Shown here: piece by piece, positions 3,414 to 52,122 of the stretch | Layout of the letters: each line of letters opens with the position of its first letter | Numbering within the stretch: position 1 is the stretch's first letter | Sequence record: OZ413489.1 | Origin: a phage | Length of the DNA: 64,000 nucleotides | Reading direction: 5' to 3' (one strand) | Program-made: the position numbers and the translations under genes | The notes under the pieces: generated by a model | What the model was told of the DNA's origin: nothing | What the model saw: only the letters and a program-made list of their open reading frames with translations | The model's database searches: none

Positions 3414-5485
3414 TGGCAACAGCTATTTTTAAACCTTACCGTGATTACTCTACAATGGCTGCACGGTTTCATTACCGCACAGTTCAGGATACTGCAGTTC
3501 CTGGTAGGGATTATAATCATGTTGAGGGTGATGTAACTATCCCAATTGGGGCAACCAGTATTGAGATCCCAGTGGAAATTGTTGACAAATTACCCAACAG
3601 GTTGCCAAGAAGCTTCTTTATGGAGTTTTCATCAAAATCTCAAGGGGTGATGATTGGAACACAAAGGGCGAAATGTACAATAGTTTCAGATGAGAATCTT
3701 GACAGGATATCTTGGGATACTGTCGAGGAGAGAATGTTTCACCCAAGATATTGGGTTACATCTACCCAGCAGACTGAAAGCACCTGTATTGTTGCAGATA
3801 ATAACTGTTGTATTAACCGTTTAGTGTCAAGAACATATGGAGGTATGGCTGGGTGCATTTGGGAAACAGTTGACAAGTATGACCATTTCGGTATTGGGTT
3901 TGATGATCATTATGAGATGAGAAATACCAAGCTTTGGTTCAGAATGTCAATAACCAACGCCAGCAACTTCTCCACTCCTGAAAAGATGATTATGACTGTA
4001 GACCTTGTTGATGGCACAATCATCTATGTTCCTTTAGCTCAATATGCTGTCAGCATCTCAGAGGATAAGAATGTTGCAGAAATTCATATTGATTTCGAGG
4101 ACTGCGTCGGGATGGACCAGAACAACAATATGATGGGTGTTGATCCTCGACAGGTGAGAAGGATTTTAATACCGCTTATGCCTAAAGATTGGGTAAGCAA
4201 TAGCACAAACCCAAGAACGGAAAATGTAGAGTGTGAGTTGCGCCTAGATCTGCTTCAGCCAGACACAGGCTGGAAAATGATGCAACTTAACAATATTCAG
4301 GTGAAAGAACACGACGTTGGGATCTGCACAGCATATGACGATATGTGGAACGTGTCTCCTTTAAGGGTGTTGAACAATATCAAGCGTCTGGGCTATACCG
4401 GAACCATAAACCATTATGTTGGTATGAGTCATTATTATGACTACACATGGTCAGGAACTCAATGGTCTATAAACAGAACAGGAGCGCTAAACGCTGCAGC
4501 TTATAAATGGCATGATGATTTTATGTACAATGCCAAACGACATAACTTCGACGTTATGCAATCTGTAAGTTTTGAGCTTTTCAGCGATGCCTGCCCGTTG
4601 GAATGGACCCAAAGAGACTGGAACGATAACTACGCTAAAACAGGGTATACACCTTGTAGCTACCTCCTGTCTCCAACCATTGAAGAGGGTATGAATTTCC
4701 TTACTGCAGTATTTAAGAATTTTGCATCAGCCGCTATGAGAAACAACCTGCCAGTGATTATGCAGGTTGGTGAACCGTGGTGGTGGTACAATACCGATAC
4801 TCGTAGACCTTGTATTTATGATTACCCTACAAAGCAGGCGTTTTATGATGAGACAGGTGAGTATGCATTAGATATTGGGACTATTGACGATCCTAAAACT
4901 GGCGGTGTTTACGACAAGTATGTAGCATTTTGTCGTGGTAAGCTTGGCGCTCGTATTGCGGCTATTTCAAAGGCAATAAAGGCACACGCTGCATCAGCTC
5001 AGATGACAGCTCTACTGTTTTTCCCAACCATTATGGAAACCGAGCTTACGCAAAAGCTTAACCTTGCTGACCAATATAAAAAGGAAGCAGGTGCTCTTGA
5101 TTTCTTCTGCACCGAGTGCTACGATTGGGTGATGCAGGGAGGTATTGAAAAGGCAAAAGAGTCTGTAAACATACCTATCGTTAAGTTAGGTTGGCAACCG
5201 TCTGAAATACAATACCTTGCAGGGTTCGTTCCTAGTAAAGAGCTTGCTCCGGTATATGGTTACGACCCAACCAGGAATTACCAAGAATTTTTATGGAGAT
5301 GTATTTGCGGAAACATGGCAACTATAGAGTATAGATATCCTGAGGTAAAACAGTATGTGTGGGCATACCCGCAAGTAATGTCTGACAGCATCACTGTTAC
5401 CGCTAGAGATTCTACCGTGCTTCATATGGGGCAGGTTGCTCTGAAAGGGTATGTAGAAGATGTTGTCCCGCCAGACTTCTCATAA
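3413..5485 (+). CDS. Tail fibre / baseplate structural protein
   Basis: 690 aa ORF, start overlaps upstream stop (ATGG); within tail module; no recognisable enzymatic motif. Confidence 0.55.
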   Translation: MATAIFKPYRDYSTMAARFHYRTVQDTAVPGRDYNHVEGDVTIPIGATSIEIPVEIVDKLPNRLPRSFFMEFSSKSQGVMIGTQRAKCTIVSDENLDRISWDTVEERMFHPRYWVTSTQQTESTCIVADNNCCINRLVSRTYGGMAGCIWETVDKYDHFGIGFDDHYEMRNTKLWFRMSITNASNFSTPEKMIMTVDLVDGTIIYVPLAQYAVSISEDKNVAEIHIDFEDCVGMDQNNNMMGVDPRQVRRILIPLMPKDWVSNSTNPRTENVECELRLDLLQPDTGWKMMQLNNIQVKEHDVGICTAYDDMWNVSPLRVLNNIKRLGYTGTINHYVGMSHYYDYTWSGTQWSINRTGALNAAAYKWHDDFMYNAKRHNFDVMQSVSFELFSDACPLEWTQRDWNDNYAKTGYTPCSYLLSPTIEEGMNFLTAVFKNFASAAMRNNLPVIMQVGEPWWWYNTDTRRPCIYDYPTKQAFYDETGEYALDIGTIDDPKTGGVYDKYVAFCRGKLGARIAAISKAIKAHAASAQMTALLFFPTIMETELTQKLNLADQYKKEAGALDFFCTECYDWVMQGGIEKAKESVNIPIVKLGWQPSEIQYLAGFVPSKELAPVYGYDPTRNYQEFLWRCICGNMATIEYRYPEVKQYVWAYPQVMSDSITVTARDSTVLHMGQVALKGYVEDVVPPDFS

Positions 5486-23329: not shown

Positions 23330-23358
23330 TTGACTTTACTCTAACTCTACAATATAGT
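23330..23358 (+). promoter_or_regulatory. sigma70-type promoter (plus strand)
   Basis: TTGACT-17 bp-TATAGT, about 40 bp before the ATG at 23399; back-to-back with the minus promoter. Confidence 0.55.
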
Positions 23359-27477: not shown

Positions 27478-27512
27478 AGACCTCCCCCGCTTCGGCGGGG
27501 ATTTTCTATTTG
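27478..27512 (+). terminator. Rho-independent terminator
   Basis: Hairpin cccccgcttcggcgggg followed by attttctattt. Confidence 0.7.
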
Positions 27513-27520
27513 GAGTTATT

Positions 27521-28021
27521 GTGAAAATTAAGATCTTTGCTATTATTTTGAGCGCATTTTTATCGCTGCCTGTTGTTGCAGCACCAAAACAAAAAGTATA
27601 CCATACTTGCAAGCCATCAGATACTAAGGAAAACATTCTAGCATGCAATATCTACAGGGAAGCTAGAGGGGATGGCACGATGGGTATGCTGGCATCTGGG
27701 TTTGCCACCCTAAACAGGAAATCTCACCCCAAATACCCAGACACCATAAGAAAGATTGTCTACCAACCTAACCAGTTTTCGTGGACAAACCACGGCAAAA
27801 CTTTTAAGGTGACAGAAAAAGATTCATGGGATCACGCTAAAAGTCTTGCAAAGATGCTTCTAAAGGTCTATAATAACAACCATGTTGCATACATGGCTAT
27901 GGACATAACAGGTGGAGCAACACACTACCATACAACCAAAGTACGACCGAAATGGGCAAAAAAGATGCAGAGGACAGCTCAATTCGGGAGTCATATCTAC
28001 TACAAGGAGCGCAATAAATGA
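27521..28021 (+). CDS. Secreted SleB-like cell-wall hydrolase (candidate lysin)
   Basis: 166 aa; GTG start after RBS tggag; N-terminal signal-like peptide MKIKIFAIILSAFLSLPVVAAP; core residue pattern (YREARGDG ... NQFSW) resembles the SleB/Hydrolase_2 family. Confidence 0.6.
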   Translation: MKIKIFAIILSAFLSLPVVAAPKQKVYHTCKPSDTKENILACNIYREARGDGTMGMLASGFATLNRKSHPKYPDTIRKIVYQPNQFSWTNHGKTFKVTEKDSWDHAKSLAKMLLKVYNNNHVAYMAMDITGGATHYHTTKVRPKWAKKMQRTAQFGSHIYYKERNK

Positions 28022-28563
28022 TTGTAAACAGTAATGAAACTAAAGCAGTACTAACCGGAAATATGGAGGTCACCAGGGGCTCAATTTCTCTGAACAAAGA
28101 GACTTTTGGGCTAATCATTAAAGGGATTTACGAAGATAAGGTGCTGGCAAGCTGCCGTGAACCAATCTTCAATGCTGTGGACTCTCATGTTGAGTCTGGA
28201 CGGGGTGATGTACCGATCATCATTCACTCCCCTACAGACCTTGAACCATACTTCTTTGTGCAGGACGTTGGATTGGGTATGTCAGAAGAGATGGTCCGCA
28301 ACACTTTCATGAACCTCGGGGAGTCAACCAAGCGCAACAGCAACGCTCTGGTAGGTAATAAAGGTGTAGGTTCAAAGGCCCCGTTCAGCATGGTTGACCC
28401 TGCAGATGTGGTTAGTGTGCCATACCAACACAATAGCGCCAAGTGCCGTGCATGCCGCTATGAGATTGTGGTAGCTCCGGAAGCACGCAAAGATGGAGAC
28501 CCTATTGAATATGTAGTTGATCGTGACGGTAACACTATCGACATTCTTTACGAGGAGGCGTAA
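28018..28563 (+). CDS. Short GHKL-superfamily ATPase-domain protein
   Basis: 181 aa; Bergerat-fold motifs: N-box EPIFNAVDS, G1 box VQDVGLGM, G2-like GNKGVGSKAPF; too short to carry a transducer or dimerisation domain. Confidence 0.6.
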   Translation: MIVNSNETKAVLTGNMEVTRGSISLNKETFGLIIKGIYEDKVLASCREPIFNAVDSHVESGRGDVPIIIHSPTDLEPYFFVQDVGLGMSEEMVRNTFMNLGESTKRNSNALVGNKGVGSKAPFSMVDPADVVSVPYQHNSAKCRACRYEIVVAPEARKDGDPIEYVVDRDGNTIDILYEEA

Positions 28564-29933
28564 TGGAAAAAGGGCAGTATGATGTAGGCACAGATGCTGC
28601 CCTCGTTGCAATCATGAGCGGTGAGAATGTCTTCGTTTCAGGACCTGCAGGTTGTGGGAAGACGTATCTCATCAACATGATCCAGTCGATGTATGGAGAC
28701 TCTTGCATAACGGTTGCCCCGACAGGGGTAGCCGCTTTAAACGTTAATGGAGCAACAGCACACCGAACCTTCGATCTTGCAGCAGGTGTGAGCATGGAGT
28801 CAGACTGGACCGCAATAAGGGCAAAAACAGCAAAGCCTTTGAAAAGCAAGGCATTTACCATCCTAATTATCGATGAAATCTCTATGATCCGTGCTGATAA
28901 GTTTATAGAGATGGATAGGAAACTCCGCTTCCTTCGAAAAAATGACAAACCTTTCGGAGGCATACAGGTCATATTGTTTGGCGATTTTTACCAGGCACCT
29001 CCTGTTGTCTCTTCTATGGAGAAGGAAGCCTACTTCAACTTCTACCATACGGACCTGTGTTGCTATACCGAATCTTGGAAAGAGCTTGACCTCCACAACA
29101 TAGCCCTAATAGATCAGTTCCGACAGGAGTCTATTCGATTTGCCACAATGCTCAACTGTGTTCGTGAGGGTCGTCGCATAAAAGAGGTTGTAGCAGAACT
29201 TAATGCTCGCTGTTACAAAGGAGGTGTACCAACAGATGCTCTCACAATTTGCGCCACCAACAAACAAGCAGAGGAAGTGAACAGAAGGTTCTATGATGCC
29301 ATCAACGCCCCAGAGAAGGTATACACTGGTGAAATGAAGGGTAAGTTTCCCTCCACCCTGCCAGTTGAGCAGGAGATGAAGTTGAAAATTGGCATGAAAG
29401 TTATGATAACCGCCAACGATGTTGACCCGACGCACAAAGTACCTTATTATGTTAACGGAACACGTGCCACAATTGTTAAATTTAAGAACAAGGCGGTGGT
29501 GGTAGAGCTTGAAGATGGAACACAGGTTGACATAGAGCAGAGGTTGTGGGAGAATAACGAGTATAAGCCATCTCAGAGATACAACATTGCAGAAAGGAAG
29601 ATGGAGAAGTTTATAGAGAGGGTAGTGATTGGGTCATACAGGCAACTTCCTCTGAAATCTGGGTATGCCGTAACATCTCATAAAAGTCAAGGACTTACGC
29701 TAGATTGTTACAACCTGGACCTTGGAAAGAACGGAGCTTTCTCTCCTGGGATGACGTATGTTGCTTTGAGTCGGGTTAAGACAATACAAGGAATAAACTT
29801 GTTGCGTCCACTAAGAGAAGTTGACATTATTGTTGACCCGCGAGTCGTAGAGTTTTACAATACAACATTCCCTGACTTAGACAAAATTGTCAGGAAAGAT
29901 TTTGAAACCAGAGCCGAAGAGGGGGACGTATGA
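28563..29933 (+). CDS. Dda/RecD/Pif1-like SF1 DNA helicase
   Basis: 456 aa; Walker A GPAGCGKT, Walker B ILIIDEISM, C-terminal SH3-like fold motifs (YAVTSHKSQGLT). Confidence 0.8.
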   Translation: MEKGQYDVGTDAALVAIMSGENVFVSGPAGCGKTYLINMIQSMYGDSCITVAPTGVAALNVNGATAHRTFDLAAGVSMESDWTAIRAKTAKPLKSKAFTILIIDEISMIRADKFIEMDRKLRFLRKNDKPFGGIQVILFGDFYQAPPVVSSMEKEAYFNFYHTDLCCYTESWKELDLHNIALIDQFRQESIRFATMLNCVREGRRIKEVVAELNARCYKGGVPTDALTICATNKQAEEVNRRFYDAINAPEKVYTGEMKGKFPSTLPVEQEMKLKIGMKVMITANDVDPTHKVPYYVNGTRATIVKFKNKAVVVELEDGTQVDIEQRLWENNEYKPSQRYNIAERKMEKFIERVVIGSYRQLPLKSGYAVTSHKSQGLTLDCYNLDLGKNGAFSPGMTYVALSRVKTIQGINLLRPLREVDIIVDPRVVEFYNTTFPDLDKIVRKDFETRAEEGDV

Positions 29934-34466: not shown

Positions 34467-36896
34467 ATGAGCATGTGGTCGTTCGACTTTGAGTCATCCG
34501 GTTTGCTGGAAGACCCAGATCTTTATTATCACTGCGGCCTGTTTAAAGAGCTGAATAAGAACCGTTTTATGCTGTTCCTTCCTCTAAATGACCGCACACA
34601 CTACTCCGAGGAGGATATAGAAAAGGCTAAGAACTTCATTCTGGCAAAGAAAACTCTTTATAAAGATTTTGAAGTTCGCATAGCAGATTTTTCAGAGTTG
34701 GAAGGTTGGCTTACAGGAAATTCTGACTGGTCACCAACAGCTTTGAACTGCCATAACTGCTACAGTTATGACTTTATGCTGATGGAAAGATTATCTGGTA
34801 TTCATTTTGATATGTTCCGTGATCCTAAATGTATGGGGACTATCAACGATCACCAGGTTAACCTGTTTGATACGTTGGCGATGAGCCGAATCTTGTGGCC
34901 TGATCGCCCTTTACCAAAAGGTTGTCCGGACTCTGTATTCAACCCGGTTACTAAGAAAATGCAGCCTGTTGGTCCTCACGGCCTTATGGCATGGGGCTAC
35001 GCCCTTGGTAACCAGAAAGTTCAAATTGATGACTGGCGCGATCTTCCGTTGTGGAAGTATGTGGATCGTGTATTCGAGGACGTTATCATCCAGGAGCTGC
35101 TCTGGAAAGAGCTGGTAGCGGAATCAAAAGGTGTATTCTACGGCAAATCTGACATGCAGAACTTTATGTACGATCCGGCCAAAGAGAAGCCGAAAGGGTT
35201 CAAGAAGATCACCTGGAAGAACGCATTACGTCGAGGCATGCTGCAGCACTTCCTGATGGAGCTGCAGGCCCGTCAGGGTGTATACTTCGACATAGATGGA
35301 GCTATTGCTTTACGTGACCGTTGCGATGCGTGGATGAAAGAAATCGCTGATCGTGTTGAACCACAACTACCTTTAAAAGAGCTGTCAATGTCTCAGCGGC
35401 CCAAGTTCCCTGAAAAGCCGTTTAACCAAGACGGGACAATCTCTAATAATGGTTGGAAATGGTTAAAAGATAAGCTTGGCTATCCTGTAGACATGAGTGC
35501 TTTAGAGTTCAAAGCCCTGCCTAAGCGAGCATTTACCTCTACAGGAGATGTCAGCAAGATGGGGATAAAATGGTGTGAAGAGATGGGCTGCAAAGACCCC
35601 GATAAGATGGCTGATTTCTTGAGAGGCTATATTAAGGGCACCTCCACACCACAACCCTTACCTAAAGAGCTGATGGATCAGGCAATAAGTGATCTGCAGC
35701 AGAAGCGAATGCCTGACTGCAAGATACCTATGAAAATCAGCAATCAGGACGACATCAAGCGATACCTAATCAGTGCTGGTTGGCTCCCAACAATGTGGAG
35801 AACTAAAGATGTAACTAAAGACAGCAAGAAGAAAGCTTTACCTGATGCAGATGTTGATGCACGAGTATATGCATATATGGACGAGCTTTTGGAGTCAGAG
35901 TATTGTGACCTAATTATCAACTTCTGGAACAAAACTGATGCTAAGTTCCAGACAACCGTGCACAAGTTCCGAAGCTTTCCTAACTCCGAAAGGATTAAAA
36001 AGGAAGTATTCGGGAAAATACGTAGAAAAGCCAGGGCACTTATTACTTCTCCGCAACTGAAAGATACGTTTGGACACCTATGCCCAAATCTTGAAAAATT
36101 GAACGGAGAGATGGCTAAAGATATCGTCTTGTGGTTATCATTGCGAAACCGCAGATCGGTCCTTGATCCAATCAAGGAGGATAAGGTTGATACTGGTCTT
36201 CTTAATCACCCACGTTTGAAGATTGACCATAAGCTTCCTGCTAAAAGCTCTGGATTAACAAACACTTCCAGACAGAAACACAGTATTTGTGCAAACATGC
36301 CTAAACCATCTCCTAAAGTAGTTATGGGTAAAGAGATGCGTAGTCTGTGGGGTGTTCCTCCAGGATACTTTGAGATCGGTATTGACGGGTCCAACTTAGA
36401 GCAGCTCATCGGGGCTTGGGGTGCCTTTGAGTTCGACAACGGCTTGTATTATGATGTTGTAAGTAACGGAGACGCACACCAAAACAATGCTGAGGCATAT
36501 ACAAAAGTGGCAGGCAGAGAGGTGTCCCGTAACGACGGTAAACCTATCACGTATGGGGTTATGTACGGGGCACAAAAAGATAAAGTTGCAGATATGCTGG
36601 ACATCTCCCCAGAGTTGGGACAAAGGGTAATCGATGCACTCTGGGATGCCAACCCAGGTCTTAAGGGGCGCAAAGAGGATCTGGAGAAATTCTGGGAAGC
36701 AACAGGTAAGAAGTTTATCTACTCTTTTGATGGTCATGCTATCTGGACCCGATCTAAACACTCTTTACTTAATGCATACCAACAAAATGGCGGTGCATCG
36801 TTGTGTGACTTAGTTGGAATACTCATGCACCACCAGATGGTGAAGCGTGGGTGGTACGATGAAGGTGTTCGTCGTATTATTTATTACCATAAATAA
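34467..36896 (+). CDS. Family A DNA polymerase
   Basis: 809 aa; RBS aaggagaac; exonuclease-like segment (LFDTLAMSR); palm motifs DGSNLEQL (motif A-like) and KPITYGVMYG (motif B-like). Confidence 0.8.
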   Translation: MSMWSFDFESSGLLEDPDLYYHCGLFKELNKNRFMLFLPLNDRTHYSEEDIEKAKNFILAKKTLYKDFEVRIADFSELEGWLTGNSDWSPTALNCHNCYSYDFMLMERLSGIHFDMFRDPKCMGTINDHQVNLFDTLAMSRILWPDRPLPKGCPDSVFNPVTKKMQPVGPHGLMAWGYALGNQKVQIDDWRDLPLWKYVDRVFEDVIIQELLWKELVAESKGVFYGKSDMQNFMYDPAKEKPKGFKKITWKNALRRGMLQHFLMELQARQGVYFDIDGAIALRDRCDAWMKEIADRVEPQLPLKELSMSQRPKFPEKPFNQDGTISNNGWKWLKDKLGYPVDMSALEFKALPKRAFTSTGDVSKMGIKWCEEMGCKDPDKMADFLRGYIKGTSTPQPLPKELMDQAISDLQQKRMPDCKIPMKISNQDDIKRYLISAGWLPTMWRTKDVTKDSKKKALPDADVDARVYAYMDELLESEYCDLIINFWNKTDAKFQTTVHKFRSFPNSERIKKEVFGKIRRKARALITSPQLKDTFGHLCPNLEKLNGEMAKDIVLWLSLRNRRSVLDPIKEDKVDTGLLNHPRLKIDHKLPAKSSGLTNTSRQKHSICANMPKPSPKVVMGKEMRSLWGVPPGYFEIGIDGSNLEQLIGAWGAFEFDNGLYYDVVSNGDAHQNNAEAYTKVAGREVSRNDGKPITYGVMYGAQKDKVADMLDISPELGQRVIDALWDANPGLKGRKEDLEKFWEATGKKFIYSFDGHAIWTRSKHSLLNAYQQNGGASLCDLVGILMHHQMVKRGWYDEGVRRIIYYHK

Positions 36897-37163
36897 CATT
36901 GTGGCTTCATAGAGTAATCTATGTCGAATAACCTCTTTAACTGCGGGAAGCCTAAACCTTATGGCAAGGTAATCCGCAACGAAGCGCTCAAAAGAGCGAA
37001 CGCTCAGAGGCCATTCCGAAAGGAAGTAGACCAGCAAGTGCGGTCGAAATGGGAGGATTCCTGTGGTTGCTTATCATAGGAATATGAGATGGTCCGATCC
37101 TACGTGAAAACGTATGGCTATGCACGTAATGGTGCGGGGTAGCTTAACGACCTACCTGAACTA

Positions 37164-37520
37164 TTGGATGAGTACCAACTTCAAGTGCCTGACACACCGA
37201 AGTATAAGACTGTGTACACCTTCGACACAATTGAAGAACTGGAAGCATTTAAGGCAGAGCAGGAAGCCAAACTTCATGTGTTCGACGGTCATAAGTACAA
37301 AAAGGCACGCAAGGATGAGGACGGAAACGAAGTGGTTGACAGAGACGGAAACACGGTGTACGATCCTATCCTGAACGATGACGGAAAGCTTGAACTTATC
37401 TGGAGCCCTGTGGGTGAAATGGTGGTACATTGCTTCTGGCAAGCTTCTAAAATGATGGGAGTCCCGTTCCAGATCACAGGTGAATACTTGTGTGGTCGTA
37501 ATTGGGGTGATTGTCACTAA
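37164..37520 (+). CDS. Hypothetical acidic protein
   Basis: 118 aa; TTG start in the track with a weak RBS, start uncertain; preferred over the overlapping 37114-37374 frame on composition. Confidence 0.4.
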   Translation: MDEYQLQVPDTPKYKTVYTFDTIEELEAFKAEQEAKLHVFDGHKYKKARKDEDGNEVVDRDGNTVYDPILNDDGKLELIWSPVGEMVVHCFWQASKMMGVPFQITGEYLCGRNWGDCH

Positions 37521-51750: not shown

Positions 51751-52122
51751 ATGGAATTTATTATTTTGGCTGTAGTAGTTGCCTTGTTCAACGCCTGGAT
51801 CGCTGGCAAGATAGGTAGATCCGCTTTTCTATGGTTTGTTATATCTATTTTCCTGGGAGTGGTTGCAACTATTGTATTGGTTATCCTTGCAATTGTTGAC
51901 AAGGGCGATAATAGAAAGGGTAAAGTGTTTTCCGACCTGTATGACGCACAAACGTTTGTCAACGCCTATTATAGTGATCTTCCAGTCTCCCTACGCTGCA
52001 GCCTGGCACAACAGGTTTTTGATGAGGCTAAAACCAGAGACCAAGCCCATGAGATATGTTTAACTGAAGCGGATCGCCTATTTGAGAGGAATAGAAAATA
52101 TGTGGACCAGCCGTTTAAATAA
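51751..52122 (+). CDS. Membrane protein (two predicted TM helices)
   Basis: Track ORF from 51616 overlaps the upstream gene and terminator; ATG at 51751 follows RBS aaaagaggtac; begins MEFIILAVVVALFNAWIAG. Confidence 0.5.
   Translation: MEFIILAVVVALFNAWIAGKIGRSAFLWFVISIFLGVVATIVLVILAIVDKGDNRKGKVFSDLYDAQTFVNAYYSDLPVSLRCSLAQQVFDEAKTRDQAHEICLTEADRLFERNRKYVDQPFK

Follow-up and report, generated by a model that had tools for sequence, protein, structure and literature searches.

The 64,000-nucleotide stretch of DNA analysed here (the window) belongs to a Vequintavirus. In this region it shares 98-99% identity with over 100 rV5-like phages, and its best match is Escherichia phage MaxTheCat (99% identical), whose genome it parallels from approximately 30.2 to 99.1 kb. 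At positions 27521-28021 lies a gene encoding a small cell wall hydrolase, preceded by a terminator-like hairpin and followed by a fused remnant of rIIA and rIIB. The features of this locus and its surroundings are as follows.

23330-23358, + strand: sigma-70-like promoter (TTGACT-17-TATAGT) heading the rightward operon that includes the hydrolase gene; equals rV5 P010
27091-27471, + strand: 126-aa acidic protein (rV5 gp3, PHROG 12370), upstream neighbour
27485-27511, + strand: terminator-like hairpin, CCCCGC-TTCG-GCGGGG followed by ATTTTCTATTT (GC-rich stem and T-run), 10 nt upstream of the start codon
27512-27515, + strand: Shine-Dalgarno motif GGAG, read from the sequence, 5 nt ahead of the hydrolase GTG
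27521-28021, + strand: SleB-like (Hydrolase_2) wall hydrolase coding sequence, running from GTG to TGA and encoding 166 aa; orthologous to rV5 gp2 and MaxTheCat bas57_0064
27521-27580, + strand: predicted Sec/SPase I signal peptide, residues 1-20, MKIKIFAIILSAFLSLPVVA; heuristic n/h/c analysis and -3/-1 rule
27659-27661, + strand: GAA codon of the presumed catalytic Glu47 in N-I-Y-R-E-A-R-G, placed by alignment to SleB
27671-28003, + strand: Hydrolase_2/SleB-type catalytic domain (Pfam, residues 51-161)
28018-28563, + strand: in-frame fusion of the rIIA N-terminus to the rIIB C-terminus, 181 aa, with an ATG that overlaps the hydrolase stop; product of a deletion of approximately 2.6 kb
28563-29933, + strand: Dda/RecD-like helicase, the downstream neighbour of the hydrolase block that is conserved across Vequintavirinae genera
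51751-52122, + strand: two-TMD 123-aa protein, 100% identical to a 'putative holin' of MaxTheCat (bas57_0112); putative function

The GTG at 27521 is the first possible start of the hydrolase open reading frame, and its TGA stop shares the sequence ATGA with the start of the next gene. The protein is 99.4% identical to Vequintavirus orthologues over its full length (165/166 residues), and the single mismatch would fit a GTG start translated as Val. These orthologues (rV5 gp2, MaxTheCat bas57_0064, and those of APECc02, JES2013 and slur16) are the same gene with the same length and pI, and they occupy the same slot upstream of rIIA behind the same hairpin. Nothing notable distinguishes the hydrolase itself from them; the difference lies downstream, where rIIA-rIIB has collapsed to the 181-aa fusion. 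In rV5 Table S3, gp2 is a 'cell wall hydrolase' of 166 aa, 19,052 Da and pI 10.0, assigned to PF07486. Orthologues are annotated as 'cell wall hydrolase', 'SleB' or 'endolysin' in more than 100 genomes, with 'endolysin' as the RefSeq label, while at least two Vequintavirus records name the orthologue merely 'hypothetical protein'. The gene is thus already annotated and described in the literature, in a phage genus with many sequenced members, and finding it again is a rediscovery that carries little weight as it stands.

Operon context and the rIIA-rIIB fusion

The genes run in the order fucosyltransferase, several small open reading frames, MoxR-type ATPase, 126-aa acidic protein, hydrolase, rIIA, rIIB, Dda/RecD-like helicase, primase-helicase and DNA polymerase. 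The hydrolase is probably expressed from an early or middle rightward operon and not with the late genes. A literature search for transcriptomic or timing data from Vequintavirinae returned nothing usable.

The interval from the hairpin (27485-27511) to the hydrolase gene contains no recognised promoter. The identical hairpin is predicted terminator t003 in rV5 Table S4. Hairpins of different sequence occupy the equivalent spacer of approximately 50 nt in Certrevirus F5M2A and Septuagintavirus A73, and some structure upstream of the hydrolase seems to be conserved across genera. Such a hairpin could serve for attenuation, keeping the output of a dangerous enzyme low.

The upstream neighbour, rV5 gp3, has been listed as a T5.083 homologue, and we considered it as a conserved partner of the hydrolase. 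BLASTP of the gp3-like protein against the upstream genes of T5-like phage HildyBeyeler and Justusliebigvirus alia gave nothing significant (E 0.2-0.4), and against those of F5M2A and A73 no match at E<=1e-3. These four homologue loci ruled out a conserved upstream partnership.

In both F5M2A and A73 the hydrolase gene is followed, with a 4-bp overlap, by a gene for a 65-70-aa two-TMD protein and then by the same helicase at 40-41% identity. Since this helicase follows in these genera as well, placement beside replication genes is a conserved trait of the subfamily. The slot directly downstream is always membrane- or lysis-related, holding the small TMD protein in Certrevirus and Septuagintavirus and rIIA-rIIB in Vequintavirus. 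The small membrane protein was also considered as a universal partner. It is absent in the T5-like phage and alia and was rejected as such for that reason.

The fusion joins the first ~125 residues of rIIA to the last ~56 of rIIB, and PHROG matches of the 181-aa protein identify these two termini. In relatives the same place holds both genes at full length, rIIA with 660 aa and rIIB with 401 aa, and the approximately 2.6 kb in question is missing from the window relative to 117 of 117 related phage records. The junction falls at a short imperfect repeat, CATGGT(G/T)GAC. Contigs of two independent public sequencing runs (ERR15372739 and SRR35114172) encode an identical fusion protein flanked by the same genes, so the variant is real, whether it circulates or arose in a laboratory. 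Its form resembles that of T4 r1589, the classical rIIA-rIIB fusion deletion.

The first-pass annotation had placed the gene among replication genes rather than in a lysis cassette. That it lies outside any cassette is borne out: its neighbours are the small acidic protein and rIIA-rIIB/helicase, and no late-promoter motif was found upstream. The rest of the description needs qualifying. The surrounding operon appears to be of the early/middle type, the gene seems to abut the helicase because of the ~2.6-kb rIIA-rIIB deletion, and its embedding among replication genes is in part a consequence of losing most of these two genes in the window.

Catalytic domain and predicted export signal

A Pfam search assigned the protein to a single family, PF07486 (Hydrolase_2), with an E value of 2.1e-19 and 70.4 bits against a curated gathering cut-off of 27 bits; the match spans residues 51-161 and profile positions 2-100 of 100. 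PHROG 938 ('endolysin') was matched at E 1.7e-27. Among PDB sequences, phmmer retrieved SleB catalytic domains alone, 4F55 (E 2.5e-6) and 4FET (E 1.8e-5). An AlphaFold model of the hydrolase (pLDDT 88.5), in which the structured domain starts near residue 28, gave the same two entries as the sole significant Foldseek matches in the PDB (probability 1.00; TM 0.73-0.78 normalised by target).

A word-indexed search recovered 10 homologous proteins, and breadth came from an exhaustive search of cluster representatives (11,334 clusters at E<=1e-3), of which the 150 nearest were aligned. E47 was kept in 149 of these 150, and R66 and H158 in all of them. The wider set of family signature residues is likewise retained in the protein (Y45, R49, N65, R66, Q85-F-S-W88, P143, W145, H158 and Y161). 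In the alignment with SleB (4F55/4FET), E47 falls on the first Glu of the YGESRGE motif. SleB is a lytic transglycosylase with one catalytic Glu (PMC12331253; title of 4FET), and this residue is essential (PMC12331253). The alignment, together with chain-numbering arithmetic and one secondary source, suggests that E47 is the equivalent of the SleB catalytic Glu. Profile, fold and the retained E47, R66 and H158 together establish that the Hydrolase_2 domain is real, and it looks catalytically intact. The earlier description of the product as a SleB-like wall hydrolase thus stands.

The resemblance to SleB has limits. The Bacillus SleB/CwlJ structures 4F55 and 4FET share with the phage protein the catalytic-domain fold and the conserved Glu-containing motif, at approximately 21-24% identity. 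SleB has an N-terminal peptidoglycan-binding domain, whereas in the phage hydrolase Hydrolase_2 is the sole Pfam match and just ~30 residues separate the signal peptide from the catalytic domain. The phage enzyme also has an extra helical insert at approximately residues 95-125. SleB requires the muramic-delta-lactam of the spore cortex; because E. coli does not contain this substrate, substrate or bond specificity may differ from that of SleB. The hydrolase is a member of the domain family and not a SleB orthologue. By analogy it would cleave glycan strands; some phage papers call the SleB-like protein an amidase (PMC7344957, PMC11370258), while the SleB literature describes a lytic transglycosylase.

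The N-terminal hydrophobic, signal-type segment reported in the first pass was also recovered. In MKIKIFAIILSAFLSLPVVA/APKQK (slashes mark predicted cleavage), K2 and K4 form a basic n-region, I5-L16 a 12-residue hydrophobic h-region, and P17-V-V-A20/A21 a c-region with a helix-breaking Pro, V-V-A at -3 to -1 and Ala at +1. The signal-peptide call is a rule-based heuristic, and the segment follows the Sec/SPase I rule set checked in this way: basic n-region, h-region of 7-15 residues, small residues at -3 and -1, and no Pro at +1. With 2.95 for its best Kyte-Doolittle 10-mer, it ranks close to the top of the scores listed for 104 crude open reading frames of the window. Cleavage is predicted between A20 and A21. 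A cut one residue further on would leave Pro at +1, which is disfavoured, so the predicted mature protein comprises residues 21-166 (16.9 kDa, pI 9.95, from a 19-kDa precursor).

Of 151 sequences scored (the query and the 150 cluster representatives), 133 have an N-terminal hydrophobic segment, versus 17 of the 104 crude window open reading frames. Closer Vequintavirinae orthologues retain the hydrophobic core, and small -3/-1 residues are kept in close and distant orthologues despite sequence drift (FAA/T, SQA/S, SHA/T and AQA/E). Textbook signal peptides are seen in the homologues of HildyBeyeler (MKAALLLVAALTFSFNSHA/T, ending FNSHA/T) and alia (FTPVVAQA/E). A signal peptide has been reported for the Certrevirus orthologue CB7_83 (PMC7344957). 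With this signal peptide published and the orthologues annotated, the observation is correct but already known. Reviews place Hydrolase_2 among the dominant lysin domains of Gram-negative phages, with approximately 28% of such lysins carrying predicted signal peptides (PMC8223927).

A lipobox ([LVI][ASTVI][GAS]C) was sought in the hydrolase and not found, the first Cys being C30 in YHTC; some homologues have lipobox-like ends. A Cys next to the active-site motif occurs in 106 of 120 sequences. A Cys30-Cys42 disulfide was considered as a sign of periplasmic location and set aside as a hint only, since the pairing pattern varies among subgroups.

The first pass had left open whether the protein is secreted or a signal-anchor-release (SAR) lysin. 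The signal-type N-terminus agrees with both, as a hydrophobic stretch could in principle serve as an uncleaved anchor, leaving a tethered enzyme to be released upon depolarisation by a holin or pinholin. Anchoring would explain how early synthesis is tolerated, and the family does include other topologies: in Pakpunavirus K8_033 the hydrophobic segment at the N-terminus is longer, lacks a basic n-region and shows no obvious site for cleavage. SAR endolysins such as P1 Lyz and phage 21 R21 have weakly hydrophobic, uncleaved SAR domains, with a Gly/Ala/Ser-rich TMD of approximately 20 residues and no signal-peptidase site. In contrast, the window protein combines a short, strongly hydrophobic h-region with an AXA-type site, its uncharged stretch being just 16-18 residues. 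Residues 5-20 are 62% I/L/F/V/M and 31% G/A/S; the contrast with the roughly 35% I/L/F/V/M of the P1 Lyz and R21 SAR domains is indicative and serves as a lead only. Pro followed by V-V-A/A, with small -3/-1 residues kept in orthologues, also argues against an anchor. Of the two forms proposed in the first pass, the secreted one is the better fit, and we consider the tethered form distinctly unlikely.

We give next to no credence to two other readings, namely that a wrong start codon has produced a spurious signal-like N-terminus or that the protein is a virion lysin that works during DNA injection. After the GTG, the first Met in frame is M54, which lies past the presumed catalytic E47. The GTG itself is preceded by a good ribosome-binding site, and homologues share the hydrophobic N-terminus. 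Virion lysins do occur in large myoviruses. However, the published mass-spectrometry list of rV5 virion proteins does not include the hydrolase, candidate baseplate lysins are encoded by genes of their own, and the hydrolase is a single-domain protein with a predicted export signal; the comparison with virion-associated lysins rests on that published list.

Lysis genes of the phage type and the role of the hydrolase

The first-pass annotation had further observed no classical holin-endolysin pair in the window. None does lie beside the hydrolase gene, but the absence of a pair follows from where the window ends, which excludes the endolysin and spanins. A search of the rest of the genome in MaxTheCat for holin and spanin genes found spanins, an R-like endolysin and a putative holin, and any impression that the phage type does without conventional lysis machinery falls away. 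The endolysin is a 156-aa lambda-R-like protein at record position 124.5 kb; it was recognised by PDB sequence search (lambda lysozyme 1AM7, E 3e-56) and has no N-terminal hydrophobic segment. The i- and o-spanins lie at record positions 1-683, beside the terminase. By tblastn, the R-like endolysin and spanins fall outside the window and the holin candidate alone inside it (51751-52122). The two hydrophobic helices of this candidate are N-terminal, and its PHROG is of 'unknown function'. Pfam gave no match for the MaxTheCat R-like endolysin, the holin candidate or the spanins.

The existence of this separate set, with R-like endolysin, spanins and holin candidate, makes the SleB-like enzyme most likely an accessory. 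We therefore read the protein as a small, basic, Sec-exported murein hydrolase of the SleB fold that probably serves as an accessory wall-weakening or lysis factor rather than as the sole lysin. It would be expressed from the early/middle rightward operon, behind the terminator-like hairpin, and be translationally coupled to rIIA through the ATGA overlap. Made with a classical Sec signal peptide, it would cross the inner membrane with no need for a holin; signal peptidase I would cut after A20 and release a soluble periplasmic enzyme, which would act on the sacculus by cleaving glycan strands via E47.

Holin-free export is a reasonable inference from the predicted signal peptide, and it has parallels. 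Lys44 of Oenococcus phage fOg44 is a Sec-exported endolysin with a cleavable signal peptide, from a phage of a Gram-positive host. It and the SAR endolysins P1 Lyz and R21 share Sec export without a holin pore with the predicted behaviour of the window hydrolase, though their catalytic families differ from it. In these cases a holin or depolarisation may still time action, and Sec-exported lysins of Gram-positive phages are reported to require membrane de-energisation for activity. A freely exported wall hydrolase made early or in the middle phase should carry a risk of premature lysis, which counts against our reading. Either membrane de-energisation or weak expression downstream of the hairpin may still govern its timing.

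The opposite assignment, in which the SleB-like protein is the principal endolysin and the lambda-R-like enzyme the accessory, has some appeal. The SleB-like protein is present in all Vequintavirinae genera, in which the other lysin has been swapped (PMC7344957), and RefSeq labels the gene 'endolysin'. However, LysECP26, an rV5-type orthologue of the R-like enzyme, has been purified, is muralytic and lyses Gram-negative cells (PMC9728275), and the rV5 authors call gp89 'an obvious lysin' (PMC3606486). The SleB-like gene also has no recognised late promoter. On these grounds we hold the exchange of roles to be extremely doubtful.

The exported enzyme might instead have no part in lysis, which would then be left to the R-like endolysin system alone. 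In that case it would remodel peptidoglycan, for example by loosening the sacculus for enlargement or envelope change, by blocking superinfection or by releasing muropeptides. In favour of this, the gene sits in an early/middle block, its translation is linked to that of rIIA/rIIB, which are membrane-integrity genes, and a complete separate lysis set exists. Moreover, the conventional endolysin type varies among Vequintavirinae genera while the SleB-like gene is constant (PMC7344957, PMC11370258). On the other hand, CB7_83 is reported to be toxic upon expression in E. coli ('data not shown'; PMC7344957), and in CB7 a candidate class II holin gene overlaps that of the SleB-like protein (PMC7344957). 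Evidence from other phages, given below, bears on this alternative as well, and we regard it overall as possible but unlikely. For the role of exported SleB-type hydrolases in large virulent coliphages, we found no experimental test.

The same domain in other phages

Orthologous SleB-like hydrolases with signal-peptide-type N-termini occupy the same slot upstream of the Dda/RecD-like helicase in Certrevirus (CB7 gp83) and Septuagintavirus (A73_73), at 41-46% identity in the F5M2A/A73 comparisons. In these two genera the gene for the 65-70-aa two-TMD holin-like protein overlaps the 3' end of the hydrolase gene, where Vequintavirus has rIIA-rIIB; an overlapping holin-like gene speaks against a purely non-lytic role.

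Pseudomonas phage vB_PaeP_Tr60_Ab31, of the lambdoid type, offers a different arrangement. Its ORF65 has the same catalytic domain (motifs WGEARGEG…NR…QFSCW…HY) but, unlike the window hydrolase, lacks an export signal at its N-terminus. Immediately before it come a Q-like antiterminator and a multi-TMD holin-like gene, and an Rz-like spanin is nearby. This layout is that of a classical, holin-dependent cassette, and use of the domain as a true cassette endolysin is further evidence against confining it to remodelling. From its gene positions, Hydrolase_2 looks to be a genuine lysin module of Gram-negative phages.

In T5-like phages and Stephanstirmvirinae, the form with a signal peptide occurs apart from any cassette and together with another lysin. 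This recurrence of a second, exported Hydrolase_2 speaks for a non-lytic function. Counting the cassette enzyme of Ab31, the cleavable signal peptides predicted here and the K8_033 topology, the module would appear to be deployed with at least three export solutions.

A bolder proposal, which we consider very unlikely, is that the exported SleB-like enzyme is a core lysis effector of Vequintavirinae, and the 'second lysin' of T5-like phages and Stephanstirmvirinae, gated by a downstream membrane protein. The gate would then be the two-TMD protein in Certrevirus and Septuagintavirus or the coupled rIIA/rIIB in Vequintavirus. If so, the rII proteins, which have long been a puzzle, would restrain an exported hydrolase from premature lysis, in these phages at least, and the rIIA-rIIB fusion deletion in the window would be a rapid-lysis-type variant.

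Under our preferred reading of an accessory wall-weakening or lysis factor, the meaning is more modest. In several families of large virulent coliphages (rV5-like, T5-like and phAPEC8-like), a conventional endolysin is accompanied by an exported SleB-type hydrolase that is encoded away from the lysis cassette. If this enzyme is a Sec-dependent lysis or wall-weakening factor, it would be a Gram-negative addition to the small set of signal-peptide lysins. As an enzyme naturally built to reach the periplasm, it could also interest lysin engineers.

Gene content downstream of the SleB-like gene

The slot downstream of the SleB-like gene (a wall hydrolase CDS at window 27521-28021, (+), orthologous to rV5 gp2) is occupied by rIIA-rIIB in Vequintavirus, whereas in Certrevirus and Septuagintavirus it holds a two-TMD, holin-like gene of 65-70 aa that shares 4 bp with the 3' end of the SleB-like gene. 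The window has no counterpart of this holin-like gene.

Certrevirus F5M2A locus (L007), 4028-4225: two-TMD holin-like gene
Septuagintavirus A73 locus (L008), 4007-4219: two-TMD holin-like gene
Window, 28018-28563, (+): rIIA-rIIB fusion ORF, junction at about 28389-28400

In the window ORF, the N-terminal ~125 aa of rIIA are joined in frame to the C-terminal ~56 aa of rIIB. The fusion arose through loss of about 2.6 kb, with a short imperfect repeat, CATGGT(G/T)GAC, at the breakpoint. It is similar in form to rII fusion deletions of the T4 r1589 kind. The junction is absent from all 117 related phage records. Contigs from two public runs (ERR15372739 and SRR35114172) encode a 181-aa protein identical to this fusion and flanked by the same genes as in the window.

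A holin candidate elsewhere in the window

Window, 51751-52122, (+): putative holin, 123 aa, with two N-terminal hydrophobic helices

This protein is 100% identical to the product of a gene annotated as 'putative holin' in Escherichia phage MaxTheCat, to which the window is 99% identical, and its PHROG label is 'unknown function'. It differs from gp129, the 78-aa protein proposed as the rV5 holin (PMC3606486).

DNA polymerase gene and related records

Window, about 34467-37520: DNA polymerase region, main ORF ending at 36896, further ORF at 37164-37520

MaxTheCat is annotated with a DNA polymerase gene joined from two pieces. The spacing of the two window ORFs fits an intervening sequence of ~270 nt, which may be an intron.

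Between about 53.8 and 56.5 kb, the window aligned to MaxTheCat only in short, gapped pieces (92-95% identity); the interval is a variable patch amid small hypothetical genes. Separately, 16-23 'Campylobacter phage' records (MG0656xx, host C. jejuni) were 98-99% identical to E. coli rV5-like phages over the region around the SleB-like gene, which suggests that this data set includes mislabelled or contaminating phages.

A hairpin ahead of the SleB-like gene

The ~50-nt spacer directly 5' of the SleB-like gene contains a stable GC-rich hairpin in three Vequintavirinae genera.

Window, 27485-27511, (+): GC-rich hairpin
L007, about 3456-3490: GC-rich hairpin
L008, about 3453-3482: GC-rich hairpin

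The hairpins are alike in position and unrelated in sequence. In rV5, the corresponding hairpin is predicted terminator t003 (rV5 Table S4). The spacer hairpin may be a conserved attenuator preceding a potentially toxic SleB-like gene.
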